DNA of 59,163 bases from a virus: IMG/VR virus record IMGVR_UViG_3300036770_001786, positions 1 to 59,163 of that record. One strand, written 5' to 3'. The number at the start of each line of letters is the position of its first letter. The first letter of the stretch is position 1. Below, in pieces: positions 16,331 to 50,030 of this stretch. A program made the translations under genes and the position numbers. The notes under the pieces are model-generated. The model ran no database searches. It saw nothing but the letters and a program-made list of their open reading frames with translations, and was not told where the DNA came from.

Positions 16331-16499
16331 GAGCGTGATGATAACACGCGTTTGGGTCTCGCCACAATTCAAATGGTTGGAGATGCGTGGTGCGCCGTGT
16401 TCCGTGACTGTTCCGTGAAACAACGAATCGCAGAACGTGAAACAGCTCTCGCGAATTCGACTTACGCACGCGTATGAGACCCCTTACCCCAGAGAGACT

Positions 16500-16562
16500 A
16501 TTATAGTAGTAGAGGGATACTTGGCGTCTGAACGACCCTTCTGTGTTCCATTAAGGTGGAAC
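16500..16562 (-). promoter_or_regulatory. Candidate activator-dependent late promoter
   Basis: A TATAAT reads on the minus strand at 16505-16500, with no acceptable -35 and no TGn. The palindrome GTTCCA-N6-TGGAAC is centred about 51 bp upstream of it. A second TATAAT lies at 16656-16651. Confidence 0.3.
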
Positions 16563-16659
16563 GGGTGACGGAACACCCTACTGCCTCGAAGCCCGCGTCC
16601 TTCGGCCTTTTTCGGAAATTGTTCCGTTGTGTATACCGTTCCATCTGCCAATTATACCT

Positions 16660-16679
16660 CTGTCGCAGGCTTGCGACAG
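16660..16679 (-). terminator. 8-bp stem hairpin ctgtcgca-ggct-tgcgacag at the end of the early module
   Basis: Perfect inverted repeat read directly. The tail is A/U-rich but has no U run. Confidence 0.3.
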
Positions 16680-16788
16680 GATAATGGTCGCGTACGCGTG
16701 TAACGGTGGAACAATTGCTCCGGGGTCCTTCTCTTACGGGGGGCTTCGCTGTTCCATCTCTGTTCCGTCAAGGTAGAACGGTAGAACG

Positions 16789-21438: not shown

Positions 21439-21483
21439 TTCGGGTCTGTCCTCTATTGGGTTATAAAAGTACTACGAACCCGT

Positions 21484-24770: not shown

Positions 24771-25327
24771 TTGAATATCCTCACATGCAGAATTCGCTCG
24801 CAGATGATCTGCGTGGCGAAGTACAGAGACAGCTCCGGATGCATCTCCACCGATGCATTGGCGAGTTGGTTTATCGATTGCTCGATTCTAATCAGCACCT
24901 CCTTCGCGTGAATCCCCACCCCGTTATCCTGCAGGAAGTACGCGGCCTCGATCATGTCGGCGAGCTTCACAATCGTCTCGATCGGAGTCCCCTTCACCCG
25001 CATATGTCGTGCGTGATAGTCCGGGTCGGCGATCTTTTCCGCGTCGTTTATGATAGACTCACCACCCGCCTGCCGCAAGCACTCTTTGAAGGGCGACGCC
25101 AAGTCCCCGGTCTTGACCTCGATCAGGTCATGGAACATCGCCCAATGCATGAGTTCTAACCGCTGCTGCGGCACCTGGAGTCCGGGCCACTTGCCGTGCA
25201 GGGCGAGTTCCCCGGCCAGAATACAGACGTGGAAAGAATGCTCGGCCAGGGTCTGCGTGCGTGACGTCTGCACAATCTGCCACCGCTTCACATGGCCGGC
25301 GCGTAGCTGCTCAGTTAATGTTAACAT
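24767..25327 (-). CDS. datZ: HD-domain phosphohydrolase (YfbR-like), DatZ-like dATP hydrolase by context
   Basis: RWQIVQTSRTQTLAEHSFHV...AMFHDLIEVKTGDLASP carries the H...HD...D metal motifs. It lies in the same operon as the PurZ-like and MazG-like genes. Confidence 0.7.
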   Translation of the reverse strand: MLTLTEQLRAGHVKRWQIVQTSRTQTLAEHSFHVCILAGELALHGKWPGLQVPQQRLELMHWAMFHDLIEVKTGDLASPFKECLRQAGGESIINDAEKIADPDYHARHMRVKGTPIETIVKLADMIEAAYFLQDNGVGIHAKEVLIRIEQSINQLANASVEMHPELSLYFATQIICERILHVRIFK

Positions 25328-25571
25328 AAGAAATCACCTTGATTCGTTCGATCATGTCGGCCACCTCATCGGCAGACAGGTTCTTGTCGTACCCTTCCGT
25401 TTCCAGTCGTGCATAAAACTGCTCGGCTGCTGCCGTGAGTGCCGCATTCCAGGTGGCTACCGTCGCTGATACGAGCTTGAATCGCACCTCCGGCGTCTGG
25501 TCCGGGAATAGCACATTGAACCACCGATTGAACTGCACGTGTTTCGGGTCTACTACTGGTTCTGTGCTCAT
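25311..25571 (-). CDS. Hypothetical protein (86 aa)
   Basis: ATG 25571 overlaps the MazG-like stop (ATGA) and is preceded by GAGG. Confidence 0.65.
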   Translation of the reverse strand: MSTEPVVDPKHVQFNRWFNVLFPDQTPEVRFKLVSATVATWNAALTAAAEQFYARLETEGYDKNLSADEVADMIERIKVISYVNIN

Positions 25572-26053
25572 ACGTGCCTCATGATTCGGGTATTTGTGTC
25601 TACCGTCCATTCGCGGTGCTCGTTGATGTCCATCTTCTCGTTTACCGCCTTGTGAATGTCGATTCCGTTCATCGCCGCAGCGTCCAGAAGCAGAATCATA
25701 ACGTCGCCCAATTCGTGCGCAGACTTCGGGTTTCGCGCGTACTCGCCGAGTTCCTCGTAGAGCTTGAGTAGAACGTCAGCAGTGGACCGCCCCGGGAACT
25801 GTTTATCGGCCCAATCCGTCACCCGCTGCTGCAGCTGCCGAATGTCGGCCCCCGACCGCTTCGTGTAGGCGTTCACCGCCCGCGCTGCGAGTTCGCAATT
25901 CTTGTACGCTCCCTCCAACACCCCCAGGGTCGAGTGCCGCACCTCGAACGTCGCGATCATGGCGCCATTGGCGTCTTTAAGCTCGGTATCCTCCGCGTGC
26001 CACGGGGTGGGCGAGAGTTCTTTGGTGTGAAAATCCGATTCATACTTAGGCAT
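25568..26053 (-). CDS. mazZ: MazG-like nucleotide pyrophosphohydrolase, MazZ-like by context
   Basis: ATG 26053 is preceded by ATAGGAGGAATTTCA. The C-terminal half WADKQFPGRS..LLKLYEELGEY...ELGDVMILLLDAAAMNGIDIHKAVNEKM is the MazG EExxE/D helix pattern. Confidence 0.7.
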   Translation of the reverse strand: MPKYESDFHTKELSPTPWHAEDTELKDANGAMIATFEVRHSTLGVLEGAYKNCELAARAVNAYTKRSGADIRQLQQRVTDWADKQFPGRSTADVLLKLYEELGEYARNPKSAHELGDVMILLLDAAAMNGIDIHKAVNEKMDINEHREWTVDTNTRIMRHV

Positions 26054-27188
26054 TGAAATTCCTCCTATAAGTCCGCCACATTTCAAGAATTCGTTTCCGT
26101 CGATCCGTCGATTGCGTGCAGCCCCAGATGGTATCATCAATCTCCAGTACATCCGACTCGGTTGGCCCTAACCCGATCGCCGCAATCCGGCAACCCTCGA
26201 TTGATTCGATAGCGTTCACAATGCGAACGATCTCGGCCTCATCCTGCACATAATTTACGAAGTTCAAAAACACCCGATCCACGCCATTGTATCGAATAGC
26301 CTCCTGAATCTGGGTCTCGCTGAACGTGAACACCCGACGCGGTAGGTTCGTCACCGTGGTGTACTCCTGCGGCTGTCCGATATCGGTGAACGAGATCTCG
26401 CGCTGGTCATCATAGCAAGGTCCGCTCCACTCGGTGAGCTTCACCTCGGTACCATTGTCCGCGTAGCGATTAGCCACCCGGATCGGATAAGTGCGAGCGG
26501 TGCCGTAAACGTGAAAAGCGCTCCCGGATTTGGCTTTCATCACCTTGGTCATTGATACGCCAGCATCGGCCAGGATTTGCATCGTGCTCACATCGCGGGA
26601 GGTGGTGTAAGGATAGAACCCATGGTAGATCGACAGGCTGTAGCCTTGTGCGCCTTCGATCATCAGGTTCTCGGCCTTATCGACTAAATCGTGCCACTCC
26701 TCGGTGGTAACCACAAATTGCATCAAACCCGGGCAATGCGAAGCAACGTTCGGCTCTTCCACCCGACGATTGATCCGGTCGATGATCGCCGCACCTACGC
26801 CTTTTCGCGTAGAACCAATCTTGCCCGGGTTCTCGCTCTCGATCTGGCGGTGCCGTTCAAGCACGACCGCCGCATGAGGGTGAATGTAGAATTTAACCTT
26901 CCGCGCCTCGATGATGTCCTTGCACGCCGCCATCTCGGCCAAAAGCTTCTGGGGGTCGATCACCGAACCCGGCCCCAAGAGCACCTTATCACAGAAGTCC
27001 GACACGATCCCGAGCGCTAATTGGGTGTGCACGAATTTGCGGCCCTCCTTGTCGATGAATGTGTGACCCGCGTTGGGCGCCCAAGTCGTGATCACCGTGT
27101 CGTACGCGTGACGCTTAGCGAGCCACCCGACAAGAAGTCCCTTGCCTGTGCTGCCGTACTGCAGATCTAGTACTAAATCTATACGCAT
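26046..27188 (-). CDS. purZ: Adenylosuccinate-synthetase homologue, PurZ-like (N6-succino-2-amino-2'-deoxyadenylate synthase)
   Basis: PurA scaffold motifs are present: DLQYGSTGKG (PurA: QWGDEGKGK), PNAGHT, IGSTRKGVGAAI, IEGAQGYSLSIYHGFYPYTTS and TYPIRV. It is flanked by a family-A polymerase and by MazG and HD genes. Confidence 0.78.
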   Translation of the reverse strand: MRIDLVLDLQYGSTGKGLLVGWLAKRHAYDTVITTWAPNAGHTFIDKEGRKFVHTQLALGIVSDFCDKVLLGPGSVIDPQKLLAEMAACKDIIEARKVKFYIHPHAAVVLERHRQIESENPGKIGSTRKGVGAAIIDRINRRVEEPNVASHCPGLMQFVVTTEEWHDLVDKAENLMIEGAQGYSLSIYHGFYPYTTSRDVSTMQILADAGVSMTKVMKAKSGSAFHVYGTARTYPIRVANRYADNGTEVKLTEWSGPCYDDQREISFTDIGQPQEYTTVTNLPRRVFTFSETQIQEAIRYNGVDRVFLNFVNYVQDEAEIVRIVNAIESIEGCRIAAIGLGPTESDVLEIDDTIWGCTQSTDRRKRILEMWRTYRRNFNA

Positions 27189-27194
27189 TTGTGT

Positions 27195-29027
27195 TTATCC
27201 CTTTGCATCATACCAGTTATCGCCCAGTCCCCAGTCGCAGGTGATAGGTACCCGCAGCCCGATTGGGCATTCTTTTCCATCGAATGTTGTATATATATGC
27301 GCTATATGTTCCGCGTGCTCCTTCGAGTCGTTGTCTAAAGATATCCCCACTTCATCGTGCACGGTCAGCAGCAGCCGCCCGCATTCATGCTCAGCCAGAT
27401 ACTCGTGCAGCTCGATGAGCTTCTGCTTCATGCAATCAGCGGACGTTGCCTGATAAATAAGCCCCGACGCCTTGTGCACGAACTGCCCACCCGGAAACCG
27501 GATGTGCCGCCCCATGATCGAATGCACGAACCCCCGCTCCTTGGCGATACTGGACGCCTTCTGCGCCATGTTCCGCATCCCAGGATTCGCGGAGTGGTAT
27601 TTCTCGAACAGCTCCATCGCCTCGGGTCCCGCCTTGAGGTACACGTTCCCGTTCGGCCCGGTCTCCTCCGTGTACGGCAACCCGCACTCCTGCGCCAGCT
27701 TCCCCGACCCCATGTTGAAGGCCAGCCCCAGGTTAATCGCCTTGGAAGAGGGACCACCGGCGTATTGGGCGTTCCGGGGGATTCCGGTCATATCAGATAC
27801 TAGCTGGTGGAAGTCCAGATTCGGGTTATCCGCGTACGCCTTGATAATGGCCGGCACGTTCCCGTAGTGGTTCGCCACCCGGAACTCGAATTGCGACCAG
27901 TCCATACCGAGCCATTGAGCGCCGTGGTCGGCCAAGAAGATCGGACGAATCAACGCCTTGATCTCTTTATCCCGTGACGGTATCTGCTGCAGCGCCGGGT
28001 TCGTCACCGAGAGCCGTCCCGTGCCGGTCCCCGCTTCCGCGTCATTCTTGGTCTGGTTGTAATTGCAGTGGATGACCCCGTCGTGGTGGTGCCCCAGAAT
28101 GTGGCCCGACAGAAACGTGTCGCGCGTCTTGAGCATCTTGCGCAGATCCAGAATCATCTTGGCCGCAGGGTGTTTCATCCGCCGCAGGCACTCGGCGTTG
28201 ATCGACGCCTTTCCACCGTCGGTCTTGTCAGCCCGGGTGCCATCGATCAAGTACCATTCATTGTCATCGCGCAGCTCGGGCTTGAACAGTTCGGTGATGG
28301 ATCCGGAAGGGTTCGGGTTCACCTCGAAGCCTGCCATCTTATTCAGATCCCTCTGCATGATGTCGACCCGACGGGTAAGGTCCTCGACGGCCTCCTCGGC
28401 ACGCTCTACATCAACCCGCACGCCCTGCTGCTCCATGTCGATGATCACGGGCATTAACCGCTGCTCAAGGGCGTAGACCTGATGCAGACCCTGCCGCTCG
28501 ATCTCCTGCTCCTGCCACTCGTAAAGCGCGTAGGCCGCGACCACGTCCTGCTTGGCATAGGGTGCTACTACCTGCGCCGGCGCTTTCGATATGTTCGGCA
28601 TCTGTGCGTTCCGCGTGGCCCTCCCGCCGAAAAGCTTCGCCAGCTGCTCGTAGATCTCCTCTTCCTTCTTCTGCCCCGCATACTTGCGTGCCAAGAAGTC
28701 CAACGCGTAGGTGGGCTCGTGCTCGTTTATCAACGCGCCCCGGACCATCGTACAATGCAGCCGGTTCAAGGGCAGCACGATCCCCGCCTCACGCAGAAAA
28801 TGGTAATCGAACTTGATGTTGTGGTTCACCCATCGCGTGACCGCCTTCGACTCGGCGAGGTCCCGCAGGAAGTCCACCGCCGTGGGTGTCTGCCGCAGAT
28901 CCCAGTAGAAGGGCTCGACGCCCGGGAGAAGCAGCGACACACCGAAAACGCGGTCCTGCCACCATTTCAGCCCGGTGGTCTCGCAGTCGATCGTCACGAC
29001 TGTAGGGGAGTCAATACGGGGAAACAT
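27195..29027 (-). CDS. dpoZ: Family-A DNA polymerase with 3'-5' exonuclease, DpoZ-like by context
   Basis: Exo I IDCETTGL, motif A DWSQFEFRV, motif B SSKAINLGLAFNMGSGKL and motif C LLTVHDEV. ATG 29027 overlaps the TGA of the upstream gene, and the 48-aa track extension is out of character. Confidence 0.85.
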   Translation of the reverse strand: MFPRIDSPTVVTIDCETTGLKWWQDRVFGVSLLLPGVEPFYWDLRQTPTAVDFLRDLAESKAVTRWVNHNIKFDYHFLREAGIVLPLNRLHCTMVRGALINEHEPTYALDFLARKYAGQKKEEEIYEQLAKLFGGRATRNAQMPNISKAPAQVVAPYAKQDVVAAYALYEWQEQEIERQGLHQVYALEQRLMPVIIDMEQQGVRVDVERAEEAVEDLTRRVDIMQRDLNKMAGFEVNPNPSGSITELFKPELRDDNEWYLIDGTRADKTDGGKASINAECLRRMKHPAAKMILDLRKMLKTRDTFLSGHILGHHHDGVIHCNYNQTKNDAEAGTGTGRLSVTNPALQQIPSRDKEIKALIRPIFLADHGAQWLGMDWSQFEFRVANHYGNVPAIIKAYADNPNLDFHQLVSDMTGIPRNAQYAGGPSSKAINLGLAFNMGSGKLAQECGLPYTEETGPNGNVYLKAGPEAMELFEKYHSANPGMRNMAQKASSIAKERGFVHSIMGRHIRFPGGQFVHKASGLIYQATSADCMKQKLIELHEYLAEHECGRLLLTVHDEVGISLDNDSKEHAEHIAHIYTTFDGKECPIGLRVPITCDWGLGDNWYDAKG

Positions 29028-29287
29028 CAGAATGGGTAGTCGTCTTCGAGATCGTCGAGATTCTGCGCCTTCGGGGGTGCCTTGGGCTTCACCCCATCCT
29101 TCGGCTTGATCTTCAGATGGAAGTACTTCTGTCCCTCGATCTTGGAACCCTCTTTGCCCGTGTTCACCCAAGCCGACAGCCAGTAATCCACGCCATCGAC
29201 GTTGATTGAACCCGTAAACTCCGGATGCTTTTCGGTCTCGCGATTGCGATTCCGCATCAACATCCCGGTATTGGTATTATCGTACAT
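29027..29287 (-). CDS. Small protein with an SSB-type acidic C-terminal tip (DDLEDDYPF)
   Basis: 86 aa. A beta-rich core (FTGSINVDGVDYWLSAWVNTG..YFHLKIKPK) is followed by a Pro/Lys linker and a tail like SSB DDDIPF. First gene behind promoter 29322-29351. Confidence 0.6.
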   Translation of the reverse strand: MYDNTNTGMLMRNRNRETEKHPEFTGSINVDGVDYWLSAWVNTGKEGSKIEGQKYFHLKIKPKDGVKPKAPPKAQNLDDLEDDYPF

Positions 29288-29353: not shown

Positions 29354-30769
29354 CTATAATCTATAGCCGTTGTATCCCTCCACTATGTCCAGTATGTTCT
29401 TACTCCGAGTCATCCCCACGTAGAACACCCGTACCTCATCATCCGGATTATTTTCGGCGGTCTGCTGCACCCGCGTCGTCAGGTCGGTAAGCAGAATCAC
29501 GTGCTCGGCCTCACTACCCTTGGCCGAATGGATCGTGGATAGCCGCAGCGAAGGTACGCTGTCGAGATCCGCATCCATATAGAAATCCACCACCCGCGAT
29601 GGAATGTCGAGCTGCACATAGAACGGACGCGCCACCACCGACTTGTAATCGTTCTGGTCCAGCATCCTTTTGACCTCAGGTACCGCCAACGTCCAGAGCG
29701 CGTTGCGTTCAGTATCAGTGAGCGTCACGCCGCTTTCCATCTTGCGGAACGACCGGATACCGTTCGCTATCTTGTTCTGGTACATTCCGGGACGACCCGA
29801 CTCCCTAAGATACGGTATTCGGCGATCGATGAGCGAGCGCTCGACCTCACGCAGGACTGAGTGCGTCCGCGCCAAAAGTAGCGTATCGGTTCCCCCTTCG
29901 ATGTCCACCGAGTTGATCGAACCGTGTAGGCGTACCAATCCCACATGACCCTTGGAACTAAACTTCTTATCGACTCGGCGAAGGACTCGACGAATGAGGG
30001 CTTGAGATTTCTCGTAGACAGCAACAGGAAGTCGATGTGAGAGCGATAAAACTTGGCTAGTACCACCGTGTTTCTCACAGAAGACAGCCATACCATGCGG
30101 ATCTGCCCCTGCCCAAGTGTAAATCGCTTGGTCATCGTCTCCCGCAATGTGAACCTCATCTGCGCGTTTGCAGAAGCGGTCGATAACCTGCCACTGAAGA
30201 GGTGATAGGTCTTGAGCTTCGTCGACGAAGATAACCTCTGCATCCAACGAAACACCTCGCTTGATCGATCGTTCGAGCATGTCGGTGAAGTCGTAGTAAC
30301 CGTAGGTAGATTTCCAATCAGCGTAAGCCCGAACAAACATATCGAATTCCGCACGAGTTCCTGGTCGTTCGGATAAGTCGTACGCCATCGAGGGTTCCAT
30401 GAAGGTGTTTCGCGCGTTGTTAAGAATGTCAAGATAGTAGTCCCCGTCTGCTCTCTCTTCGTCATCCTCGGGTGATTTTCCGATTACCGGTATCCCGGTC
30501 GCTACCGAGAATTCGCGCAGCTTAATCGTATCCACCACCTGAGCCTGTTTTAAACGTAGATGCCTGAATGCCATCGCATGGATGGTGCTCACATTGTCGG
30601 ACTTCTTGATTCCGAGTCGTGAGAGCGCCTCATGGGCAGCGGCACGGGTGAACGACATAAATGCCACCCGCTCCGCTTGCACTCCTGCATCGCGCGTTTC
30701 TTGGACCCTCCGCAGCAGCTCGGTAGTTTTACCGGTGCCGGGAGGTCCGTAAATCGCTTCAACGCGCAT
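29354..30769 (-). CDS. SF1 (UvrD/Dda-like) DNA helicase
   Basis: Walker A GPPGTGKT, FVDEAQDL, IAGDDDQAIYTWAG, STIHSAKGSEAEHV and VGMTRSK. Confidence 0.85.
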   Translation of the reverse strand: MRVEAIYGPPGTGKTTELLRRVQETRDAGVQAERVAFMSFTRAAAHEALSRLGIKKSDNVSTIHAMAFRHLRLKQAQVVDTIKLREFSVATGIPVIGKSPEDDEERADGDYYLDILNNARNTFMEPSMAYDLSERPGTRAEFDMFVRAYADWKSTYGYYDFTDMLERSIKRGVSLDAEVIFVDEAQDLSPLQWQVIDRFCKRADEVHIAGDDDQAIYTWAGADPHGMAVFCEKHGGTSQVLSLSHRLPVAVYEKSQALIRRVLRRVDKKFSSKGHVGLVRLHGSINSVDIEGGTDTLLLARTHSVLREVERSLIDRRIPYLRESGRPGMYQNKIANGIRSFRKMESGVTLTDTERNALWTLAVPEVKRMLDQNDYKSVVARPFYVQLDIPSRVVDFYMDADLDSVPSLRLSTIHSAKGSEAEHVILLTDLTTRVQQTAENNPDDEVRVFYVGMTRSKNILDIVEGYNGYRL

Positions 30770-31518
30770 TAAAACTCGGTGTCGCTCGCTGGTGTTACTT
30801 CACCATCGAAGTCCGAGGAGACCTTCACTGCGCCGCCACGGATCGTATGGTATAGCTTCTCGGCCTTCTCGTACACATCCTTCGACACGAATCCGAGCGG
30901 GTGAACGGCGAAGTTATAGTAACTTTCATTCCGCGCATTCGTCTCGGTCGCCGCCGACAGCTGGTACGCCCGGGCAAACGAGTCGGTGTTGGTGAGTCGA
31001 ATGAGCGAGTTCCAACGCTTGCTCACCTTCATCTTGGACTTGGCCATCGAGATGACCGCCTCCTGCCAACCACCGTCCTTGAGCTTCACGAGCACAAAAT
31101 GCTGCGCCGTGTCCGTCACTTCCAGGCCTTCCTCACCCAACGCCGCGACTGCGTCATCGGCCTCGGATTTGGAATTGAATGCACCCCGGAACCCATTGCT
31201 CCCCCCGCCACCCACCTTCCGATCCTTCCAAATCAGATACTGCTTGGTGTAGAACACGGGGACCACCGTCACGGTCGAACCATACAGTTCGCGCGTCACG
31301 TTGTTGTAGAGCATACCCTCATCGGCCCCCTCAATGTAGGCCGAATCGTTCTTTTTGCGCGCCGGGGACAGCGCCTGAATCAGTTCGATTCGCGGGATAA
31401 TGAGGTCATCATTCCCCACGTTCTCGGCACCACGATTACCCTGTTTGATGTAATCGGGGATCTGATCGCCAACGATGATTTCGTTAGTCTCTACCACTGC
31501 TAATTGACCTTTGGCCAT
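30769..31518 (-). CDS. Hypothetical replication/recombination-module protein
   Basis: 249 aa with SD AGGAG. It lies between a coiled-coil protein and the helicase. A role in ssDNA binding or annealing is a positional guess only. Confidence 0.7.
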   Translation of the reverse strand: MAKGQLAVVETNEIIVGDQIPDYIKQGNRGAENVGNDDLIIPRIELIQALSPARKKNDSAYIEGADEGMLYNNVTRELYGSTVTVVPVFYTKQYLIWKDRKVGGGGSNGFRGAFNSKSEADDAVAALGEEGLEVTDTAQHFVLVKLKDGGWQEAVISMAKSKMKVSKRWNSLIRLTNTDSFARAYQLSAATETNARNESYYNFAVHPLGFVSKDVYEKAEKLYHTIRGGAVKVSSDFDGEVTPASDTEF

Positions 31519-31546
31519 TTTTAAAGCTCCTAGTTACATGATTAAA

Positions 31547-31564
31547 GACACGCCGGAGCGTGCC
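31547..31564 (-). terminator. Hairpin GGCACGC-UCCG-GCGUGUC followed by UUUAAU
   Basis: 7-bp stem (one G-U pair) in the 72-nt spacer 31519-31590. The short U tract makes this a weak intrinsic terminator or attenuator candidate. Confidence 0.3.
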
Positions 31565-31590
31565 ACGGTATCCGGCTCGCGCCGAATTCT

Positions 31591-32037
31591 TTACTCCTTC
31601 GTTATGCTTGCGCGCTCGAAGGGACTAATATTCAACAGGTCCTCAGGCGGGATCTCGCCTTCCTTGAACATCTTCTTGACCGAAGCCTTCAACGTCGACG
31701 CGTTCACGGTCTCCGAAATCAGATCGGTACGCCCGTTATCCCGCAGCCACTGGTAGAAGTCGTCCTTCTTGTCTGCCTTGATCGACACGTGCATGTCGGC
31801 GGTGATCGACACCCGACCCACACCCTTGACCGAGATCCGGTCGATGTTCTCGTCATTCATGACGGTGGGGATCTTGGTGATGCGCAAGAAGTCGAACGTC
31901 TCGTTCACCTCTTTAAGCGTCTCTTCGAGCGACTCCTTCTGCTTGCGCACGTCGTTCATTTCCATCACTAGATCTACAAGATCCATGCCGTCGTACTTGG
32001 CGAATTTATTATCAGTGGACAAGTTCGTTCTCCTCAA
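31591..32037 (-). CDS. Hypothetical protein with an N-terminal coiled coil
   Basis: The track start is a TTG at 32037. Because GAGGAG lies at 32035-32030, a TTG at 32022 is a better start. The stop is firm. Confidence 0.65.
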   Translation of the reverse strand: MRRTNLSTDNKFAKYDGMDLVDLVMEMNDVRKQKESLEETLKEVNETFDFLRITKIPTVMNDENIDRISVKGVGRVSITADMHVSIKADKKDDFYQWLRDNGRTDLISETVNASTLKASVKKMFKEGEIPPEDLLNISPFERASITKE

Positions 32038-32362
32038 TGCTTATGAATAGGGGTGCATACATCTGGTCGCGGGCGTTCCATTTCAATACCTGGAAGTGCG
32101 AGGTCTTCTCCCTCAAGATCGCGAACACCAGCCCCGTAATGACCGGCGAGCCACTCGGTGCGATGAAGTCGATCTCTTTGTTGAAGTTCTTCAGATTCTC
32201 ACGCAGCACGGCAATGACCTTCTTGTTGTGCACGCTATTCTTGAATTGCGACAGTTCTGACGCGGTGAGGAACACGACTTCACCAAATTGCTCGGCGGGT
32301 CCGTAGTTCGCGGTACGCACCTCTTGGGTCACGTACACCTTGGGCTTTGGTAAAAAGTTCAT
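32012..32362 (-). CDS. Hypothetical protein (116 aa)
   Basis: ATG 32362 is preceded by AGGAGATAGAGGACTT. Confidence 0.75.
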   Translation of the reverse strand: MNFLPKPKVYVTQEVRTANYGPAEQFGEVVFLTASELSQFKNSVHNKKVIAVLRENLKNFNKEIDFIAPSGSPVITGLVFAILREKTSHFQVLKWNARDQMYAPLFISIEENELVH

Positions 32363-32401: not shown

Positions 32402-34138
32402 CTACGCATCCCCGAATAGATCGCTTGCATTCTTCTCGTTTATGCTCACTCGCACGAACTCCGACACGTCTTTCTTCTCCCGAAGTGCCTGTGCTACAAT
32501 AGAATCTACCGTTCCTTCGGCGATAATGTCAATGTAGGTTACTGACTTCGTCTGTCCTATGCGATGCGCACGGTCCTCGGATTGCTCACGGTCGGTGAAT
32601 GAGAACGAATTCGAGTAGTACACGACGGTCTCGGCCCGAGTCATGTTCAGCCCCACTCCACCGGTGGCCGCGTTACCCACGAGGAACCGCGCCCGCCCCT
32701 TCTGGAATAGCTCCTGCACATTATAATCGCGCTGCTCCTCCGAGATCTCACCATAGATCTGCACGACACTTTCTAGGCCATACTCATCCTGCAGTGCCTC
32801 AGTGACCATGCGGATCTCCTCGACGAATCGACACCAAATGATCATCGAGCCTTCGGTCTCCTCGCAGATCGCCAGAAGCTCCTCGACCTTGGGATTCCTA
32901 CCCCCGATTCTAGAGTGAGTAAACTTCGACCGATCGAACAGATCCGGGTTGCGCTCGAATGTGATCACACCCCCGGTGATCTCCTGCAACCGCAGCATCC
33001 GCTCCAGCACCGATTTGACCGTAATCCCCTGGTCGCCCACCACCGTCTGGTCACGTTTCGCGATGTCCTTGTATAGGCGCCGCTGCTCATCGGTCATCTG
33101 CACTTCTCGGGTCTCGTAGATCTTGGGCGGCAGCTCGGTCAGCACTTCGGACTTGCGCACCTGGAACACGAACGGCGAGATCAGCTCGATCAGCTCCTCC
33201 ATGTTCTGGTACCCGACGATCTCTTTGTTCTCGAATCCGCCCATTACCGCATACCGATTCCGGAATGAGTAGAAATCTCCGATCCCTAGTATATCCGGAT
33301 CTAGGCACTCGAACTGCATATATACATCCATGGGGCCATTCGCCACCGGGGTACCCGTCATGATCAGCCGGTAGGCGACCGACTTCGAGAGCTTCACGCA
33401 ATTGCGGGACCGCACCGCTGAGTGATTCTTGATCATGTGCGCTTCGTCCACGATCATACCCACCCGCGTGCTGGTGTCGACGAATTTTTGCGCGTAGAGA
33501 ATCGCATTGCCGGCAGCGAGTGACTCGGTACCCACAATAAGAATCTTCATCGCGTCACCGGTGCCCGTGTTCCATTCCTCGAACACCTTGGGCTTCGTGG
33601 TGTTCAGAATCATCACATCGGTATTTATCGGCGCATGAATGGCGACTTCGCGCTCCCAGTTCTTTCGCGTCGAGAACTTCGTGACGACCAGAAGGCGATC
33701 GACCTTGGAATCAAGAAAATAAGCCGAGAAGAGATCTAGCGCCGTCTTGGTTTTGCCGGTACCCATGTCCATATAGAAGGCGAACCCGGGCTTGCCGTAG
33801 GCGTGATTCAGCGCCCGCTGCTGGTATGGACGCGGCTCGGTCTTGAACGAATACTTGAACGGGAACTGTACGTTCTCGACCTTCCGACGCTCTAGTGACT
33901 CGACAGCCTTTTGATACGCCTTCTCCTCAAATGTGCCGCGATCAAACGCTCGAAGGAGATAATCACTATTAGAGCGGAGAACAGGAGCAGCCCAGACACT
34001 ACGACGAGCATCCCATCGCCGGTTAGGGACCTTACGAACTCGATCAACGAGCCAAGGAGGACAGCTAATAAGAAAACGACTTGACTTCTCATCGTAACTG
34101 ATCCTTAAATCAGAATTCGGTTTTAAATTCGGGTTCAT
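32402..34138 (-). CDS. SNF2-family helicase/translocase
   Basis: PYQQRAL, DMGTGKT, DEAHMIKN and QSEDRAHRIGQ. Confidence 0.9.
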   Translation of the reverse strand: MNPNLKPNSDLRISYDEKSSRFLISCPPWLVDRVRKVPNRRWDARRSVWAAPVLRSNSDYLLRAFDRGTFEEKAYQKAVESLERRKVENVQFPFKYSFKTEPRPYQQRALNHAYGKPGFAFYMDMGTGKTKTALDLFSAYFLDSKVDRLLVVTKFSTRKNWEREVAIHAPINTDVMILNTTKPKVFEEWNTGTGDAMKILIVGTESLAAGNAILYAQKFVDTSTRVGMIVDEAHMIKNHSAVRSRNCVKLSKSVAYRLIMTGTPVANGPMDVYMQFECLDPDILGIGDFYSFRNRYAVMGGFENKEIVGYQNMEELIELISPFVFQVRKSEVLTELPPKIYETREVQMTDEQRRLYKDIAKRDQTVVGDQGITVKSVLERMLRLQEITGGVITFERNPDLFDRSKFTHSRIGGRNPKVEELLAICEETEGSMIIWCRFVEEIRMVTEALQDEYGLESVVQIYGEISEEQRDYNVQELFQKGRARFLVGNAATGGVGLNMTRAETVVYYSNSFSFTDREQSEDRAHRIGQTKSVTYIDIIAEGTVDSIVAQALREKKDVSEFVRVSINEKNASDLFGDA

Positions 34139-35666
34139 CTAGTTTCACCTCGTAGTCTTCAGTAATGGGCGCCATCCACACATTGATCGTTTTGCCACCG
34201 GGGATCCGGATCTTGTCGTGATCCGCGTTGCAGTCACGCCTCAGACAGGTCCACAGGTCCATGCCGGTGAGCACTTCGGCCTTGTTGCGCTTCAGAAACT
34301 CCGAGAAGGCTGTTCCCTTGAAAACGACACACCGCGTCCCGTTGATCTCCTGCACCACCGGAATGTTGCGCAAAAGCGCCTTCCGATCGGCGGTATCCTT
34401 TCCGTCCCGGGTGAGGTCGGCCTTCTGCACGAACTCCTGGAACTTGGACTGAATCACCCCTGAAGCCGACGCCTCTTTTGGTACCTCAATCACCCGCAAC
34501 CCCGGTACTAGGGGGTCGAGGATCCGCTTTCGCCACGTCTCCTGGGTCATCTTCGGGATGTTAATCTTGAGCTGTTCAAAAATCAGCGTCCCCATAGCGT
34601 TCGGATCCCGCAGCACGGTGGTGGGGATATTGGGGATTAGCGTCCCATTCACGTGCAGGCCCCACCGGGGAGGCTCGGACCGGTATTCAATAAGCTCGGT
34701 GAACTGCGGCAGCGAGTCGTGCGCGTCCAGATCCTTCATCTCGTCCATCGAGATTCCGAACTCCCGGGTTACGCAGGTCTTGCGATCGCAGAGCGACTTG
34801 CACGGCTCCTCGGCACACTTGTATAAATAGTCCCGTCTGGACGCCGACCGAATGACCTTCTTGGCCTCCGAGGGTGCCATGGGTTTATCGAACATCGTTT
34901 GATTCAGCGCCATCGCGTCGTCGAAGAAGGTCTCAGGTCTCGCCCGCTTCAGGTACACCACCACGTTGTACATGGCGTCATTGCGAGCGCCCGACTCCAC
35001 CCCCGAGTGGATCATCTTCTGAATGCAGGGTGGCGCCTCCAGGTGCTCCCGCTGGAACAGGTCTTTAAGCTCGTCCTGCGACACCCGCTTGCTCTGGGCC
35101 AACCGTATGAACAGCTCGAACGAGATCGGGTCGCCAGCCTCGTCGAACCCGTACCGCTTCGTGTCTTTCACGTCGAAGTAGCACAGGTTAATCCAGTTCC
35201 CCAGCGCCCGCTCACCCGAGGAGGTCGCCAACGCGTCCTGCTTGGGGAAAATCTCGGTCTTGTGAGGGATTTCCAGCATATCCCGCCACGAAGTGAGGAT
35301 CCGCTTTACCTGCCGAGCATTCAGATACTCCGACCCGAATAGATACAGGTGGGCGCCCCCACGCTTGGTGCGGCACATCACTAGCGGAAGCCGGTATTCC
35401 CGGATCTTCGCGGCCACGGCCTTGAAGTCAATATCCTCGGGCGACTCGTGCTTGTCGATGTCGATGGCACCAAAGATACAGGTGTCACCGTCTGTGATCG
35501 GCACGATCCCGAGGCCCATTTTGCCATTCAGGTGGTCTTCGTACGCCTGCATCGGTACTTCACCCTTATGGGTGACCATGTCGCCCGTTTTGGGGTTCCA
35601 CTCCCCATACGAACGAAGGTTTCCGGCGAACAGCGCGGCGAAGTCCTGCGATAGATTACTTGCCAT
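34110..35666 (-). CDS. Archaeo-eukaryotic-type primase (AEP/prim-pol) with a PriCT-like domain and a long C-terminal extension
   Basis: Motif I FGAIDIDKH, motif II RGGAHLYLF, and PriCT-like PPCIQKMIHSGVESGARNDAMYNVVVYL. About 220 further residues could bind DNA. Confidence 0.8.
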   Translation of the reverse strand: MASNLSQDFAALFAGNLRSYGEWNPKTGDMVTHKGEVPMQAYEDHLNGKMGLGIVPITDGDTCIFGAIDIDKHESPEDIDFKAVAAKIREYRLPLVMCRTKRGGAHLYLFGSEYLNARQVKRILTSWRDMLEIPHKTEIFPKQDALATSSGERALGNWINLCYFDVKDTKRYGFDEAGDPISFELFIRLAQSKRVSQDELKDLFQREHLEAPPCIQKMIHSGVESGARNDAMYNVVVYLKRARPETFFDDAMALNQTMFDKPMAPSEAKKVIRSASRRDYLYKCAEEPCKSLCDRKTCVTREFGISMDEMKDLDAHDSLPQFTELIEYRSEPPRWGLHVNGTLIPNIPTTVLRDPNAMGTLIFEQLKINIPKMTQETWRKRILDPLVPGLRVIEVPKEASASGVIQSKFQEFVQKADLTRDGKDTADRKALLRNIPVVQEINGTRCVVFKGTAFSEFLKRNKAEVLTGMDLWTCLRRDCNADHDKIRIPGGKTINVWMAPITEDYEVKLDEPEFKTEF

Positions 35667-35698
35667 TAACCATTCCTCTATGTTAGACTATCGGTGTG

Positions 35699-36014
35699 TG
35701 GGAACTACTTCCACACCGGAATTCTATCACACCCCCGAGTTCCGTTCAAGATCTCTTTGTTCCACCGTTCCAGCTTGACGGAACACAGATGGAACGGCCC
35801 CAAACCCCGATCGAACGCCCCAGGGACAGAACTGTTCCACTGTTACACATACGCGGGCGATGTTCTGTCAACGGAATTATGAGTTCATTCGGGGAGATGG
35901 AACGGTGGAACAATGGAACAGACTCTCGAAGCTCGGCCACCGACGCGGCCTCTGAGGCAGTCAGGCCGTTCTATATAAAGTTTATAGACATGGAACGGTG
36001 GAACAGAGAACCGG
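35699..36014. repeat. Iteron cluster B: 12 exact GGAAC/GTTCC cores, including four tandem octamer runs
   Basis: 35898-35921 TGGAACGG|TGGAACAA|TGGAACAG; 35991-36014 TGGAACGG|TGGAACAG|AGAACCGG; 35759-35774 inverted copy (tgttccaccgttccag); 35833-35848 TGTTCCAC|TGTTACAC. Single sites at 35701, 35739, 35780 and 35790. An AT-rich stretch ctatataaagtttataga lies at 35971-35988. Confidence 0.88.
35721..35749 (-). promoter_or_regulatory. Promoter of the primase operon: TTGAAC-17-TGaTAGAAT
   Basis: -35 at 35749-35744 and -10 at 35726-35721. A GTTCC core (35740-35744) overlaps the -35 hexamer and upstream end of the spacer, and an imperfect palindrome GGTGTGGAA-gtag-TTCCCACACACC (35693-35717) spans the predicted start site. 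Confidence 0.55.
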
Positions 36015-36134
36015 TCTTCCAGACGCCAACCCCCACCGGTAGAATAATAATTCCGTAACCTGGGTATACCCCTCATACGTGCGCATAAGTCGAGCAGGAG
36101 CCCACCGTGGGTACTTCCTTGCCTTCTAGGGGAG

Positions 36135-36160
36135 GGGGTAGCTACCATTATAGCCACCCC
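36135..36160 (-). terminator. 10-bp stem hairpin GGGGUGGCUA-uaaugg-UAGCUACCCC, 14 nt after the last late gene
   Basis: Read directly (one G-U pair). No U tract follows. It may mark or stabilise the 3' end of the late transcript. Confidence 0.4.
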
Positions 36161-36173
36161 ATATGCGAGAGCC

Positions 36174-40812: not shown

Positions 40813-43800
40813 TTGACGCTCCTAAGATATGCCAACGGGCTTTTTGCTTTCGGTGGGATATCTTTCAAGGATCCCGACCGTTTGTGTCTACGAATAGCTT
40901 CCCTGAATTTATCAAGCTTCTTCGCACCTTCTTTACTCGAACCATCACCGAGTGCCGCTACGATCTCGGCGTCCAAAACATACTCCCCGTCGGCTAACTG
41001 TGCAGGGATTAGATCATCCTGACCACCACCCGCCCCATTGACATAATGGGAACCCTTGTGGGGGATATCCCCATGCGACATCAAAAGTGGCGACATAGGC
41101 ATTTTATCACTCGGAGGGTCATCCTGTACAGTCCCCCCGCGCCGGTAGAATTTGAAGGTATCCGCAGGCGAGGTCTCTTTCCCGTAGGAGTAGAAGGATG
41201 CCGGGGATGCTAAATTGTCGGGGACTCCCGATGCTCTTTGAAGTGCTGAATACACGCTCGCCTCTTGTGCTTCTGGTTCTAATCCTAACAACCGTCGGAA
41301 CCCAGCGGTTGTGTCTGGTGCCGTTCTGAATAGTCCCCCCAACCATGTTTCGCCGGGAGTAGTCGGCTTGTAATCCCCACTGGCCGCAGCAGCCCCCAGG
41401 GCGCCGAGACCAAGCATATTCATGAATGTCCTCGAAGAAGAGGTCGTAACAGGCGTGCCACCACCCTCGCCAGTGCCCTCTCCTTCGCCCTCCCCGGTTC
41501 CAGTCCCGGTGCCACCGGTGCCAATACCCTCACCCTCGGTTCCGGTCCCAGTACCTGTACCCTCATCCCCACGGGCTGTACCCTCCCCCGTTCCTCCCGG
41601 AGTTCCGGTACCTTCCCCACCACCCGGGACCGTTCCGCTTTCGCCACCACCCGGTTGTTCCCCGGTTCCGAATCCACCCGCGCTTGGTGCGCCGGTTCCG
41701 GTCGGAGATCCAGATGGAGTTCCCGGCTCGCCCGCCGTACTTGTTGGCGAGGAGGGTGGTGCCGACGGCTGGGCCGTAGGTACTTCGGGCGCCGGGGTCG
41801 TGGTTAATGGCAGGTTCGAGCCGGTGTCCGTTGATGGACCGGTCGTAGTCGATGTAGATGTTGTCCCCGACGTTTGTGGCACGCTCGGAGTCGTTGTTGG
41901 TGTTCCGGCAATCTCGGGCGTGGTCAAGTCTGCTTGAGGCGTCGTCGTAGAGGGTTCGGAGACTTGAGTTCCAGGAGATGGTGTGGCATCCCCCGGTGTG
42001 CCTTCACGGCCACCGGCAGAACCTTCCGCACCAGCTGCAGCACCACCGGACGTCTCACCCTCCTTTTTCGCTATTTCTTTAGCGATATCCGGGGGAGCTT
42101 TTGACGCATCAACCTCCTGCATCACCGTGGTCTTGGTGGCTGGATCCTGATAGAGTTCAATATAGGTCGGTACTGGCTCGGGCGTCTTCGGCACCAACAC
42201 CTGCCGATCGGGAAGCAGCAGCAACGAGTAAATCTTACCACCCACGTCGACGACGTCATTTGTTCCGGTCTGCGAGGCCCGCGCGACGAGTGACCACGTG
42301 GTTTCCTGTGGATTGCCTGCCCCCATACCTCCTGCGGGGTTGAATATAGCTCGGTTTTGCCCTTCGGGGCCACCCTCACCTGACGTCAAGAAGTTAAACA
42401 GTGTAGTATAGGACGGTGGGGTTGTGGTTTCCGCCACCGGACTCGAATCCACCGGGGGCGGTGCACCCGTTCCAGCCCCGGTTGCCCCTGTACCCGTTCC
42501 CGTTCCAGCGCCTGTACCTGTACCTGTTCCAGCACCCGTCCCTGAGTCAATGGGCGGTAGAGTGGCTGGAACGTTACTTCTGATCACACCACTACTATCG
42601 AATCCAGTGACTCTATCGGACTCGGCCTGCCGTTCGGTTATGATCTCACCTGCGTTTTCGATATCATAATACGTGATACCATACATGGGTGAGTATTCGA
42701 TCATGTACCTGTACGGGGTACCATCGCTCTTATACCCATTCACATACCGATAAGACACCTCGAAGGGTTCGAACTGTCCCTCCGGAGGTAAATTCGGATC
42801 GGGACGGATCACCACATTTTGCTCTTCTTTGTACATTGTCTCGCCAATGGTGGGTGCCACTAGCTTGCTTATGTCGGGGGTCACCACTATTGGGGGTAAC
42901 ATCTGTTCGCCCCCAGGCGTGGTTGCCTGCACCAATTGATATGGATCTTTCGGAAGCTCAATATCTGGGCGCGCCGCCACCTCCTCGATCTTTGACAGCA
43001 AATCCGAATCGGTTGTCGGCGTCTGCGCTACTGCCCCGATCAGCTTCTCAAGTGCGGGGTCGCCATAACCGACTTCAATGATTGAGTACGGCGCATTACG
43101 ATGCTTGCTACCGGTCACCAGCTCGTATTCTTGGTAGGACATTTTACGCCCTTGCGGGTAGGCGCTATCTATATAATACACATCCCCATCTGAGTATTCA
43201 CGAATCGACCGATTCCCCCAGTCATAGGTCTTTGTACCACCCGTACTTGCATCGAACAGAGGAGATGATTTATCCCGAGCTGCAGTAAATCCTGCAACCA
43301 TTTGATTATAATCGCTGCCGGTTATTCTTTCGAACTCTTCAGGGGTTAACTTGGTTTTATTCCCTTCCGCATCAGTCTGCACCAGATCCGGAGTGATGGT
43401 AACGCTGTTGTTCATCCACATTGGCTGATTCACGTCCACACCACTACTGACTAACCGGTCGCGCCGTTCTGTGTAGTCTTGATCCCTTTGGAACGCATTT
43501 TCCGCTGCTTGATAAGCTACCGAAAGCGGCGCACCACTGGTGATTGATTCTAAATAAGCTTGCACTGCTACATCGGATTTTGAAAGATCCTCACCAATCA
43601 TTTCTCGGGGGTCGATGGCTTGAATAGCTGTGACGAGAGCATCTTCGGTGAGATTATAAATCTCCATACCCTCTTCTGCTATTAAGTCATAATAGGGCTC
43701 GGTCATCTTCCATACGGCTTCGAGTTCGGTGTTGTATGCATCGAACTGTCCTTTAGCCGCGTTGTACTCATCCCAAAACCCTTTGTCCTCAAGTGTTTGC

Positions 43801-49993: not shown

Positions 49994-50030
49994 TCCGTAT
50001 TTTCCTATCTAAAATATATTTTTGTCAAGT

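Follow-up and report, generated by a model that had tools for sequence, protein, structure and literature searches.

Two repeat modules at the ends of the replication genes

The DNA analysed here, a window of 59,163 nucleotides, is the genome of a circular 59-kb phage of the 2-aminoadenine ("Z-genome") kind that encodes both PurZ and DpoZ, each above the NCBIfam cut-off. Its ORF map shows two large non-coding stretches, the sole ones in the genome, one of which lies upstream of a primase gene:

16331..16788, unstranded: intergenic region B, flanked by the small terminase gene and the final gene of the replication module
34110..35666, minus strand: AEP primase of 518 aa, with an AEP domain, PriCT_1, a Cys-rich motif and a C-terminal two-domain region (aa ~320-518)
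35667..36173, unstranded: intergenic region A (507 bp), between a 675-aa virion/tail gene and the primase gene

Each gap holds one copy of a module of about 335 bp (copy A, 35759-36093; copy B, 16457-16787). The two copies stand at both ends of the replication-gene block, 19 kb apart, and copy B is inverted relative to copy A, as revealed by a plus/minus match with 64% identity over 348 columns (E 3e-25). An earlier note on this DNA had reported clustered repeats upstream of the primase gene, and our analysis confirms this observation. All twelve GGAAC/GTTCC cores that it counted are found, at 35701-36004, so that gap A has 23.7 cores per kb compared with 2.5 per kb elsewhere, about ten times the genome background (Poisson P ~1e-8). 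The second cluster that it placed at 16.4-16.8 kb is also real, with 10 cores (P ~4e-7), and by the inverted alignment this distant locus is homologous to the one beside the primase. A longer motif, TGGAACGGTGGAACA, has 8 matches with up to 3 mismatches where 2.0 are expected, a count reached in 0 of 100 shuffles, and 8-bp tandem dimers occur five times in gap A, once in the 16.3-16.8 kb gap and nowhere else in the genome. A third GGAAC cluster at 41.5-41.7 kb was rejected as unrelated, being made of Gly-Thr codons of a low-complexity protein linker.

The repeats fall into two classes and occur in both orientations. Class I consists of 8-bp tandem TGGAACNN units in twos or threes, while class II consists of GGAAC pairs with their cores 11-12 bp apart. 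The cluster groups recur at intervals of about 85 bp, close to eight turns of the helix. Several repeats of one unit are thereby found in non-coding DNA beside a replication-initiation gene, as in an iteron origin. The elements of the two copies and their gaps are given below with reference to two alignments of relatives, A1 (14 primase-side loci) and A2 (12 terminase-side loci):

35758..35772, minus strand: class I iteron dimer TGGAACGGTGGAACA (8-bp tandem), exact match, in conserved columns of A1
35780..35795, plus strand: class II pair GGAACACAGATGGAAC with an 11-bp core-to-core distance, conserved in both alignments
35833..35847, minus strand: degenerate class I dimer TGTAACAGTGGAACA, 2 mismatches, repeat family D3
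35844..35855, unstranded: alternating purine-pyrimidine tract TACACATACGCG beside an array; consensus of the relatives CGCGTGCGCG
35898..35921, plus strand: class I iteron trimer TGGAACGG/TGGAACAA/TGGAACAG, exact
35935..35957, unstranded: G+C stem GGCC-ACCGACGC-GGCC followed by TCTGAGG, read from the sequence
35971..35988, unstranded: AT-rich 18-mer, genome-specific, outside the conserved module
35991..36014, plus strand: class I dimer TGGAACGG/TGGAACAG and, as a degenerate third copy, AGAACCGG; 85 bp beyond the trimer
36020..36027, unstranded: CAGACGCC box at the distal module end; consensus TCCAGACGCCAAG in A2, present in part of A1
36074..36087, unstranded: second alternating purine-pyrimidine tract CATACGTGCGCATA, homologous to 16463-16476
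16660..16679, unstranded: perfect palindrome CTGTCGC-AGGCTT-GCGACAG, stem family-wide, loop variable
16699..16713, plus strand: class I dimer TGTAACGGTGGAACA, from the motif search
16751..16788, unstranded: class II pair GTTCCATCTCTGTTCC, then a degenerate class I dimer TAGAACGGTAGAACG, from the motif search

The head-to-tail octamers described earlier are exact in the trimer at 35898-35921 and in the dimer at 35991-36006, but the third unit reaching to 36014 is degenerate, and the inverted 15-mer is present one base away from its reported position, at 35758-35772 rather than 35759-35773. Between the arrays, a GACGCGG / CTCTGAG box is conserved in A1, in A2 and in phages VLCpiS6a and SH-Ab 15497, and a TGTCGC..GCGACA stem like that of the palindrome is also found in relatives, including VLCpiS6a (two copies) and SH-Ab 15497. 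Alternating purine-pyrimidine runs of at least 11 are concentrated here, with 4 of the genome's 15 in the two gaps. Neither gap has an Rfam match at the gathering score or a tRNA; no intrinsic terminator lies within gap A, and those in gap B sit on the antisense strand. DnaA boxes (TTATCCACA, up to 1 mismatch) are absent from both gaps and number 6 genome-wide against 9.7 expected. Cumulative GC skew, suggested earlier as a means of mapping the origin, is monotonic because all genes lie on one strand, and it carries no information on the origin. Single-strand folding gives z values of about -3.2 to -3.4 for both copies because the inverted iterons pair with each other; these values were not used as evidence.

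Promoter features have been identified near the modules at both loci:

35721..35749, minus strand: primase-operon promoter TTGAAC-17-TAGAAT, TG-extended, sigma-70-type; A1 form TTGAnG...TGnTATAAT
35693..35717, minus strand: dyad GTGTGG-N9-CCACAC at the predicted transcription start; CCCACC..GGTGGG at the same place in relatives
16338..16367, minus strand: inferred small-terminase promoter TTGTGG-18-(TGT)TATCAT; A2 block ATTGTG...TGTGTTnTAAT-N7-ATG

Both the primase-operon and the terminase-operon promoters are non-consensus and would be weak. The latter, predicted 7 nt before the ATG at 16330 and of the leaderless type, is absent from the output of the consensus promoter scan. Four consensus early promoters (TTGACA-17-TATAAT) at 18.6-21.5 kb carry no arrays. 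The sites reported at the primase promoter are present, one directly against the -35 (35739-35743) and one shortly after the start (35701-35705), but both are isolated, bare GGAAC cores and not full TGGAAC units. The start-site dyad is conserved as a dyad, its sequence is not, and it may serve as an operator or form a hairpin in the 5' UTR. The nearest array, the dimer at 35758..35772, ends 8 bp upstream of the primase -35; an array-to-promoter distance of about 8 bp is typical of this clade, and in SH-Ab 15497 and VLCpiS6a the distance is 75-90 bp. Tandem 8-bp units, in dimers and trimers, stand at a promoter like the 7-8-bp units of ribbon-helix-helix operator arrays, and in this clade the arrays could plausibly serve to autoregulate the primase promoter. 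TATAAT-like hexamers at 36040 and 16500 were considered as a shared late promoter and rejected, since they occur only in this genome and L041 while other relatives have CCACCACCACA.

The AT-rich tract at 35971-35988 (15/18 A/T) had been proposed as an unwinding element lying between the arrays. The tract is present, but it is not conserved: in the closest relative, L001, and in other relatives its position holds G+C-rich sequence (as in L001) or more TGGAAC sites, and the 18-mer was not found in copy B either. No conserved AT-rich DNA-unwinding element is therefore found beside the iterons, and the classic element is missing. In genomes with PurZ and DpoZ, triple-bonded Z:T pairs are expected to take the place of A:T pairs (PMC8599892). 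Since both proteins are encoded here, Z:T pairs are expected in this genome, and because such pairs are not weak, iterons plus an AT-rich unwinding element do not represent the conserved layout.

Conservation, concerted change and recurrence of the arrays

The module is conserved in dozens of relatives, among them the cultured Z-genome phages Klebsiella VLCpiS6a, Salmonella PMBT28 and Acinetobacter SH-Ab 15497. Across the 14 primase-side and 12 terminase-side loci, site positions are kept and spacers have diverged. One module in two inverted copies is likewise found in all 11 related genomes from which both loci were recovered (62-77% identity), and also in SH-Ab 15497; MazZ and PurZ as queries for the relatives' whole replication modules returned few loci. 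In each genome the dominant hexamer is identical at both loci, being GTTCCA in most, GTTACA in L002 and GGATAC in L022. The repeat unit thus changes at both loci together, which points to a phage-encoded binder. The cultured relatives, with primases 40-43% identical, show the same synteny, the same tandem layout of 8-bp units and a spacing of 84-86 bp. VLCpiS6a, PMBT28 and PSA28 have the same unit as this phage, while SH-Ab 15497 has GAGCAACC and L030 has CTATCACAA; the TGGAAC unit is common to Klebsiella, Salmonella, Pseudomonas and Providencia phages, and Acinetobacter phages have another unit. Units also differ among close relatives with primases 68-80% identical (GTTACA; the 9-bp GGATACAGC). 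In a more distant phage, DSL-LC04 (primase 28% identical), no comparable arrays were recognised. These results bear out the claim that the repeats upstream of the primase are non-random, conserved and co-evolving candidate binding-site arrays.

The orientation of the module relative to flanking genes varies among lineages, as expected for an orientation-independent cis element. In VLCpiS6a the two copies point the same way, and lineages differ in which way the primase-side copy faces; both facts weaken the idea, suggested by the inverted layout, of two convergent unidirectional origins. The terminase-proximal gap of VLCpiS6a is without arrays, and its second copy lies five genes away, where it precedes a consensus promoter.

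An exact-match scan also found identical arrays in five unrelated viral contigs, laid out as 3+3 around an alternating purine-pyrimidine tract. In four of the five the arrays lie directly 3' of an SF3/DUF927 helicase-primase gene, a position that is the same as that of crr in satellite phage P4; the fifth, L148, is not annotated. One of these helicase-primases carries the Cch HTH_56 domain. The arrays precede the terminase large-subunit gene in L141, and a phrog_15261 protein in both L141 and L195.

The adjacent primase and the search for a candidate binder

The neighbouring gene had been described as an AEP primase with a C-terminal extension, and this is correct: AEP-TOTE covers residues 40-200 and PriCT_1 residues 221-280, followed by about 238 residues without assignment. 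The C-terminal two-domain region (aa ~320-518) is our candidate for the iteron binder. This region is conserved more strongly than the catalytic domain, and its models are confident (pLDDT 86 and 82) and end in a helix-strand-strand-helix-helix-strand-strand unit (H-E-E-H-H-E-E). Of 124 columns invariant in GGAA-type genomes, K485 is the sole one changed in all 4 genomes with another unit, a correlation of a single column over about 3 independent events, and in the GGATAC clade the hairpin that follows K485 is longer by one inserted residue. A helicase control showed no column tracking the repeat unit among the 20 columns testable.

Profile and structure comparison of the C-terminal domain gave no significant match to any DNA-binding fold. 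Foldseek with the whole C-terminal region and with the last domain returned nothing significant (best E 0.07-0.09, mixed matches), and its matches to Cch and SaPIbov1 Rep were likewise insignificant (probability 0.33-0.41). A Pfam scan of 72 primase homologues at E <=5 found PriCT_1 only. Among 20 other ORFs, mostly small ones of the replication module, there was no HTH or RHH Pfam match, a scan that tiny or divergent proteins could escape. The C-terminal domain has no homologue among the helicases or any other ORF of the unrelated array contigs, which suggests that the binder may be something else, possibly a host factor.

Possible functions of the modules

The interpretation given in the earlier note, a candidate replication origin and early operator, is partly supported by these findings. 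We propose that the modules are iteron-type initiator sites, an origin together with a second origin or an enhancer, that also influence the adjacent weak promoters, and we give this reading a probability of about 45%. In this model the arrays would be bound cooperatively by a sequence-specific protein that the phage itself encodes, the likeliest candidate being the C-terminal domain of the neighbouring AEP primase, and the nucleoprotein complex so formed would mark the site of replication priming. The module pair would then act as two origins, or as one origin helped by an enhancer of the crr type. Since the weak promoters of the primase and terminase operons lie next to the arrays, the bound protein would also affect middle and late transcription.

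Comparison with known systems offers several partial parallels to such initiator sites. What the earlier note said of the P4 octamers is accurate: the P4 record, NC_001609, annotates 8-bp 'ori type 1 repeats' TGTTCACC, 6 at ori and 10 at crr. As here, the sites are short (~8 bp), occur in both orientations and cluster at two loci, one beside the primase gene, and the P4 site GGTGAACA is close to GGTGGAACA of this phage. P4 needs both repeat loci in cis; in this genome two loci of clustered 8-bp units are present. However, P4 sites are spaced 9-11 bp whereas the main arrays here run head-to-tail at 8 bp, and P4 crr consists of two 120-bp direct repeats whereas the ~335-bp copies here are 19 kb apart and, in this clade, inverted. 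P4 alpha combines a DnaG/Toprim-type primase, an SF3 helicase and a solved winged helix (1KA8), in contrast to the primase of this phage, which has AEP and PriCT_1 and no helicase/SF3 domain in Pfam. No similarity of the primase to P4 alpha was detectable by BLASTP (best E 0.16 over 14 residues), and hhalign against the alpha C-terminus gave a probability of 0.1%. P4 is therefore an analogy rather than a sign of family membership. In SaPI/PICI and SCCmec-type elements, whose Rep/Cch proteins have a DUF927/MCM-like helicase and a C-terminal HTH, short-repeat arrays adjoin the initiator gene as they do here, and the five unrelated contigs pair identical TGGAACNN arrays with nearby SF3/DUF927 helicase-primase genes. 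The phage itself differs in being without a DUF927/SF3 initiator. SaPI origins have an AT-rich centre, whereas an alternating purine-pyrimidine tract or a G+C tract occupies the centre of the module here.

Classical iteron origins (lambda ori/O, P1 oriR/RepA, R6K, pPS10) also have repeats adjoining an initiator gene and promoter; the second cluster here is comparable to P1 incA, and autoregulation is plausible as in those systems. Their units, however, are 17-22 bp and not 8 bp, and here there are no conserved AT-rich element, no DnaA boxes and, as expected, Z:T pairs. In RSF1010 oriV, in a further parallel, a dedicated plasmid-encoded primase, RepB', which has an AEP-like fold, begins synthesis at two hairpin signals, ssiA and ssiB, placed on opposite strands. 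In that plasmid, however, the two single hairpins lie side by side in the same oriV and another protein, RepC, recognises the iterons, whereas the copies here are 19 kb apart and their relative orientation varies across the family.

A serious rival to the initiator-site reading, though a somewhat unlikely one, is that the arrays are purely transcriptional, that is, multi-site operators or enhancer-like activator sites through which an early phage regulator, such as a small MetJ-like RHH protein, would activate or repress the weak primase-operon and terminase-operon promoters, with no role in replication. MetJ-type repressors are known to bind 8-bp tandem units, direct and inverted, and both the MetJ metbox and omega/ParG operators place 7-8-bp units head-to-tail or head-to-head immediately upstream of promoters. 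Both module gaps hold promoters of non-early operons (replication and structural), and the contrast between these non-consensus promoters and the array-free consensus early promoters fits activator sites equally well; the array lying 8 bp from the -35 in this clade also speaks for this reading. However, neither the distance to the promoter (75-90 bp in SH-Ab 15497 and VLCpiS6a) nor the orientation is conserved, and the promoter that follows the second copy in VLCpiS6a is of consensus type and ought to work without an activator. In addition, the ORFs scanned yielded no HTH or RHH protein, the module is larger and more composite than MetJ or omega/ParG sites and is conserved with replication genes, and identical arrays recur beside helicase-primase genes of unrelated contigs.

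It is decidedly unlikely that a widely conserved host protein binds the TGGAAC arrays and is used by mobile elements to recruit host machinery to their origins or promoters. Such a protein would account for identical arrays next to initiators of three unrelated types, among which no common DNA-binding domain could be detected, and for one unit in phages of four genera (Klebsiella, Salmonella, Pseudomonas, Providencia) with another in those of Acinetobacter. Differing units in relatives as close as those with primases 68-80% identical are nevertheless hard to ascribe to hosts, and contigs with the TGGAAC unit differ widely in G+C, as read, without quantification, from the array flanks. Neither gap has DnaA boxes, an 8-bp register is too tight for DnaA-type binding, and we know of no host factor for a TGGAAC site. 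Highly improbable, finally, is recognition of the arrays by the small terminase as pac or cosB-like packaging sites: terminase small subunits do bind repeated sites, the small terminase gene of this phage, like that of SH-Ab 15497, has copy B immediately upstream of it, and the arrays of L141 and L195 precede the terminase large-subunit gene (L141) or phrog_15261 protein (both), but a packaging site would be expected once per genome, in or beside the small terminase gene, whereas there are two copies here, copy A, always beside the primase, is separated from the terminase genes by 19 kb, the terminase-proximal gap of VLCpiS6a is without arrays, its second copy being five genes away, and the small terminase has no similarity to the protein after the arrays in L141.

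The biosynthesis and the polymerase of 2-aminoadenine phages are well studied, and our literature search turned up no paper on the site or mechanism of their replication initiation. The module, read as an initiator site, offers a concrete, conserved origin candidate in the cultured phages SH-Ab 15497, PMBT28 and VLCpiS6a. If it is an origin, it shows a layout for initiation where Z:T replaces A:T and AT-rich unwinding fails in its usual form. A more specific version, which we consider unlikely as a whole, is an origin design of the Z-genome phages of this lineage, adapted to genomes with no weak pairs, in which two iteron modules would be bound by the C-terminal domain of the AEP primase, opening would proceed through the conserved alternating tracts, stem-forming palindromes or neighbouring promoters instead of an AT-rich element, and the primase would prime directly at both copies. 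If true, the combination of iterons and an alternating tract, common to unrelated helicase-primase replicons, would be a widespread, undescribed origin type. The lineage-specific units, changing at both loci, represent a natural experiment for a protein-DNA recognition code, and the identical arrays beside unrelated helicase-primase genes suggest that the design extends far beyond this phage group.

Genome setting

An exact 126-bp overlap joins bases 1-126 of the window to bases 59038-59163, and the assembly closes into a circle of 59,037 bp. Nearly all genes lie on the minus strand, and the genome holds only two large non-coding regions, gap A and gap B. Between them lie, on one side of the circle, a 19-kb block for replication and nucleotide metabolism and, on the other, a structural block of 39 kb. 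The features on which the analysis draws are as follows.

Main features of the genome
16331-16788: gap B, non-coding, 5' of the small terminase gene
18600-18705, 19380-19470, 20960-21070 and 21425-21520, minus strand: four direct repeats of about 90 bp with consensus sigma-70 promoters, ACTTGACA-17-TGCTATAAT
24767-25327: DatZ-like enzyme
25568-26152: MazZ-like enzyme
26046-27188: PurZ, 325.6 bits against an NCBIfam cut-off of 300
27195-29171: DpoZ, 822.9 bits against an NCBIfam cut-off of 500
35667-36173: gap A, 507 bp, non-coding, 5' of the primase gene, between two minus-strand genes
35749-35721: sigma-70-type promoter of the primase operon, TTGAAC-17-TAGAAT with TG extension, kept in relatives
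Bordering gap A, minus strand: AEP primase, 518 aa, with AEP-TOTE at 40-200, PriCT_1 at 221-280 and about 238 unassigned C-terminal residues
Bordering gap A, minus strand: 675-aa protein, phrog_5880, function not known

Because PurZ and DpoZ score above their cut-offs and DatZ- and MazZ-like enzymes accompany them, the phage is a 2-aminoadenine 'Z-genome' phage, and its gene content indicates that 2-aminoadenine should replace adenine in its DNA. The primase matches phrog_21866 'primase' over its full length and is 40-43% identical, also over full length, to the primases of Acinetobacter phage SH-Ab 15497, Salmonella phage PMBT28 and Klebsiella phage VLCpiS6a, the first two of which are PurZ phages according to the literature (PMC8342488; bioRxiv 10.1101/2025.10.22.683976).

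The replication/early block also encodes a histone-deacetylase-domain protein (23126-23950; PF00850, E 8e-33) and a DUF932 protein (19999-20985), and three proteins like Pam3 gp32/gp33/gp34 lie at 30769-32362. At 50000-56300 the G+C content falls to 43-47%, as against about 55% elsewhere, across a 1777-aa ORF (50934-56267) with no Pfam match; the gene may serve the virion or host range and have been acquired recently or evolve fast.

The two-copy repeat module

Gap A contains 12 GGAAC/GTTCC cores spanning 35701-36004, a density of 23.7 per kb compared with 2.5 per kb in the rest of the genome (Poisson P ~1e-8). The 15-mer TGGAACGGTGGAACA occurs there in three exact copies, at 35758-72 (minus strand), 35898-912 and 35991-36005, and in eight copies when up to 3 mismatches are allowed, against 2.0 expected and with none of 100 shuffles reaching eight. 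Head-to-tail dimers of 8 bp are confined, genome-wide, to gap A (five) and to the gap at 16.3-16.8 kb (one). The earlier note had taken octamer arrays and an AT-rich tract beside the primase gene for a candidate origin and operator, and our motif search of the window places its gap A repeats correctly to within 1 base. Arrays lie upstream of the primase in most of 37 IMG/VR loci with primases 42-87% identical to this one; a further 80 loci were collected via the small terminase. The arrays are real, functional-looking and conserved at depth. GGAAC cores also cluster at 41.5-41.7 kb, a place that the earlier note does not mention; these were rejected as an array, since they are Gly-Thr codons repeated in the linker of a 1403-aa protein, a low-complexity stretch rich in Gly, Thr, Glu and Pro (41450-41760; GTGTGTGEGEGEG...).

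The arrays are part of a larger unit that the earlier note had not recognised. The plus strand of A (35759-36093) aligns with the minus strand of B (16787-16457) at 64% identity over 348 columns (E 3e-25), showing that both gaps carry one module of about 335 bp in mutually inverted copies. Both loci were recovered in 11 relatives, and in every one of them A and B align best in plus/minus orientation (62-77% identity over 150-350 bp), as they do in SH-Ab 15497, where 20773-21227 matches 43201-42949. Alignment of 14 A-type and 12 B-type regions reveals that TGGAAC units form the conserved columns while the spacers drift, and the site groups are phased at 83-86 bp in all lineages looked at.

Elements of the module
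Class I sites: two or three 8-bp units in tandem
Class II sites: pairs of GGAAC at 11-12 bp spacing
Stem CTGTCGC..GCGACAG, with a varying loop
G+C hairpin with a GACGCGG/CTCTGAG box
CAGACGCC box

Alternating purine-pyrimidine tracts also belong to the module, and gaps A and B together (965 bp) hold 4 of the 15 runs of at least 11 in the genome. The 18-bp AT-rich stretch proposed as an unwinding element does not belong to the conserved design: it is G+C-rich in the closest relative, L001, is missing from copy B, and its place is taken by extra TGGAAC sites in other relatives. Nor would A+T-rich DNA be expected to melt readily in a Z-genome (PMC8599892). Directly after the stop of the 675-aa gene lies an inverted repeat, GCTA-N6-TAGC (36138-36156), several columns of which are invariant in 14 of 14 aligned relatives.

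Repeat unit and candidate binder

We tentatively read the arrays as an iteron-type initiator-binding module, either an origin or an origin plus enhancer, which would also affect the adjoining promoters and has the C-terminal domain of the primase as leading candidate binder (probability about 0.45). The dominant hexamer of each genome is identical at loci A and B, and its switches affect both: it is GTTCCA in most genomes, GTTACA in viral locus L002 (mixed in L014 and L017) and GGATAC in L022. The clade of L019, L022 and L023 has altered the tandem class I sites alone, to 9-bp GGATACAGC units, and its 11-bp-spaced pairs are still GGAAC. TGGAAC-type units are retained in the distant cultured phages VLCpiS6a (ATGGAACGGTGGAACGGTGGAACGG), PMBT28, PSA28 and Kokobel2; the units are GAGCAACC in SH-Ab 15497, GGGGTAACA in JeffCo, CTATCACAA in L030 and TCACTACA in L031. 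Such switching at both loci is the behaviour expected if the sites co-evolve with a sequence-specific protein encoded by the phage.

The primase region after PriCT_1 is conserved at 75-95% identity per 40-residue bin, compared with 50-85% in the catalytic domain, and its AlphaFold model is confident (pLDDT 86). In this model the last 80 or so residues follow the helix-strand-strand-helix-helix-strand-strand order of a winged helix. Foldseek searches of the PDB with both C-terminal models gave no significant match (best E 0.07-0.09; a mixture of histidine-kinase domains, PadR, Cch and SaPIbov1 Rep), and a Pfam search of the region found no family. Among 124 columns invariant in all 21 genomes with GGAA-type units (this clade, enteric phages, L032 and L035), only K485, just past the putative recognition helix, is replaced (by A, V, R and S) in each of the four genomes that use other units. 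A control on the SNF2 helicase gave no unit-tracking column among 20 testable ones. Where the tandem unit has become one base longer (GGAACA to GGATACA), the clade concerned also has one residue inserted in the following hairpin (PGGK-T to PGHTYP or similar). Both correlations point to the C-terminal domain; they involve few evolutionary events and are suggestive only.

Adjoining promoters and comparable systems

A purely transcriptional role, as operator or activator arrays, is the next reading, less likely but a serious rival. Eight bp separate the -35 of the primase promoter from the closest class I dimer upstream, and an activator model predicts what is seen, namely weak promoters with arrays and strong ones without: no arrays accompany the four promoters at 18.6-21.5 kb, which have TTGACA-17-TGcTATAAT followed by a conserved leader and ribosome-binding site (AATAGAGGA) and are probably early promoters ahead of small genes of function not known. 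In SH-Ab 15497 and VLCpiS6a, however, the distance between arrays and primase promoter is 75-90 bp, and the second copy in VLCpiS6a precedes a consensus promoter five genes off the terminase gene, whose own gap lacks arrays. Module orientation relative to genes also varies among lineages, copy A of this phage being inverted relative to that of VLCpiS6a and the copy pair being direct in VLCpiS6a and inverted in this phage and SH-Ab 15497.

A dyad at the predicted primase transcription start, GTGTGG-N9-CCACAC (35693-35717), could act as an operator or form a hairpin in the 5' UTR; in relatives another dyad, CCCACC..GGTGGG, occupies this position. The small terminase apparently starts at ATG 16330, 7 nt past an extended -10 conserved among the B-type regions (16331-16345), which suggests that its mRNA would be leaderless; TTG 16423, which opens the longest ORF, is probably not the real start.

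A scan of viral contigs for the exact 15-mer listed 79 new loci, 25 of them with dense arrays, of which 20 are A or B loci of relatives and five lie on unrelated contigs that match none of six proteins of this phage.

Arrays of TGGAACNN tandem units on unrelated contigs
L141, 7070-7453: 3' of helicase-primase, phrog_21086/35358
L148, 4000-4206: layout only
L165, 220-470: 3' of helicase-primase, DUF927
L195, 2620-2880: 3' of helicase-primase, phrog_21086/35358
L202, 160-420: 3' of helicase-primase, DUF927 plus Cch HTH_56 domain

All five share a layout in which an alternating purine-pyrimidine tract separates three tandem units from three inverted ones, and in the four whose flanking genes could be called the array directly follows an SF3/DUF927 helicase-primase gene, the same position as crr directly downstream of alpha in satellite phage P4. 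The origins of SaPIs, which adjoin rep, match this position too. None of the five encodes a homologue of the primase C-terminal domain, so another protein, or else a host factor, can evidently serve identical repeats. Sites for a conserved host factor are an improbable reading, and recognition sites for the terminase, in spite of the position of copy B, a very improbable one.

The analogy with P4 drawn in the earlier note is sound in its facts, since the P4 record has TGTTCACC type-1 repeats at ori and crr, and alpha has at its C-terminus a winged-helix domain that binds DNA (PMC2777425). Membership in that family fails because the primase of this phage is an AEP that lacks an SF3 helicase and has no detected similarity to alpha, and because the spacing of the repeats is 9-11 bp in P4 as against 8 bp in the window. 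Classical iteron origins are set apart by the length of their units, by their AT-rich element and by their DnaA boxes, of which gaps A and B contain none. Within a limited literature collection we found no paper on these arrays or on an origin in PurZ phages. The module is directly testable in cultured phages.
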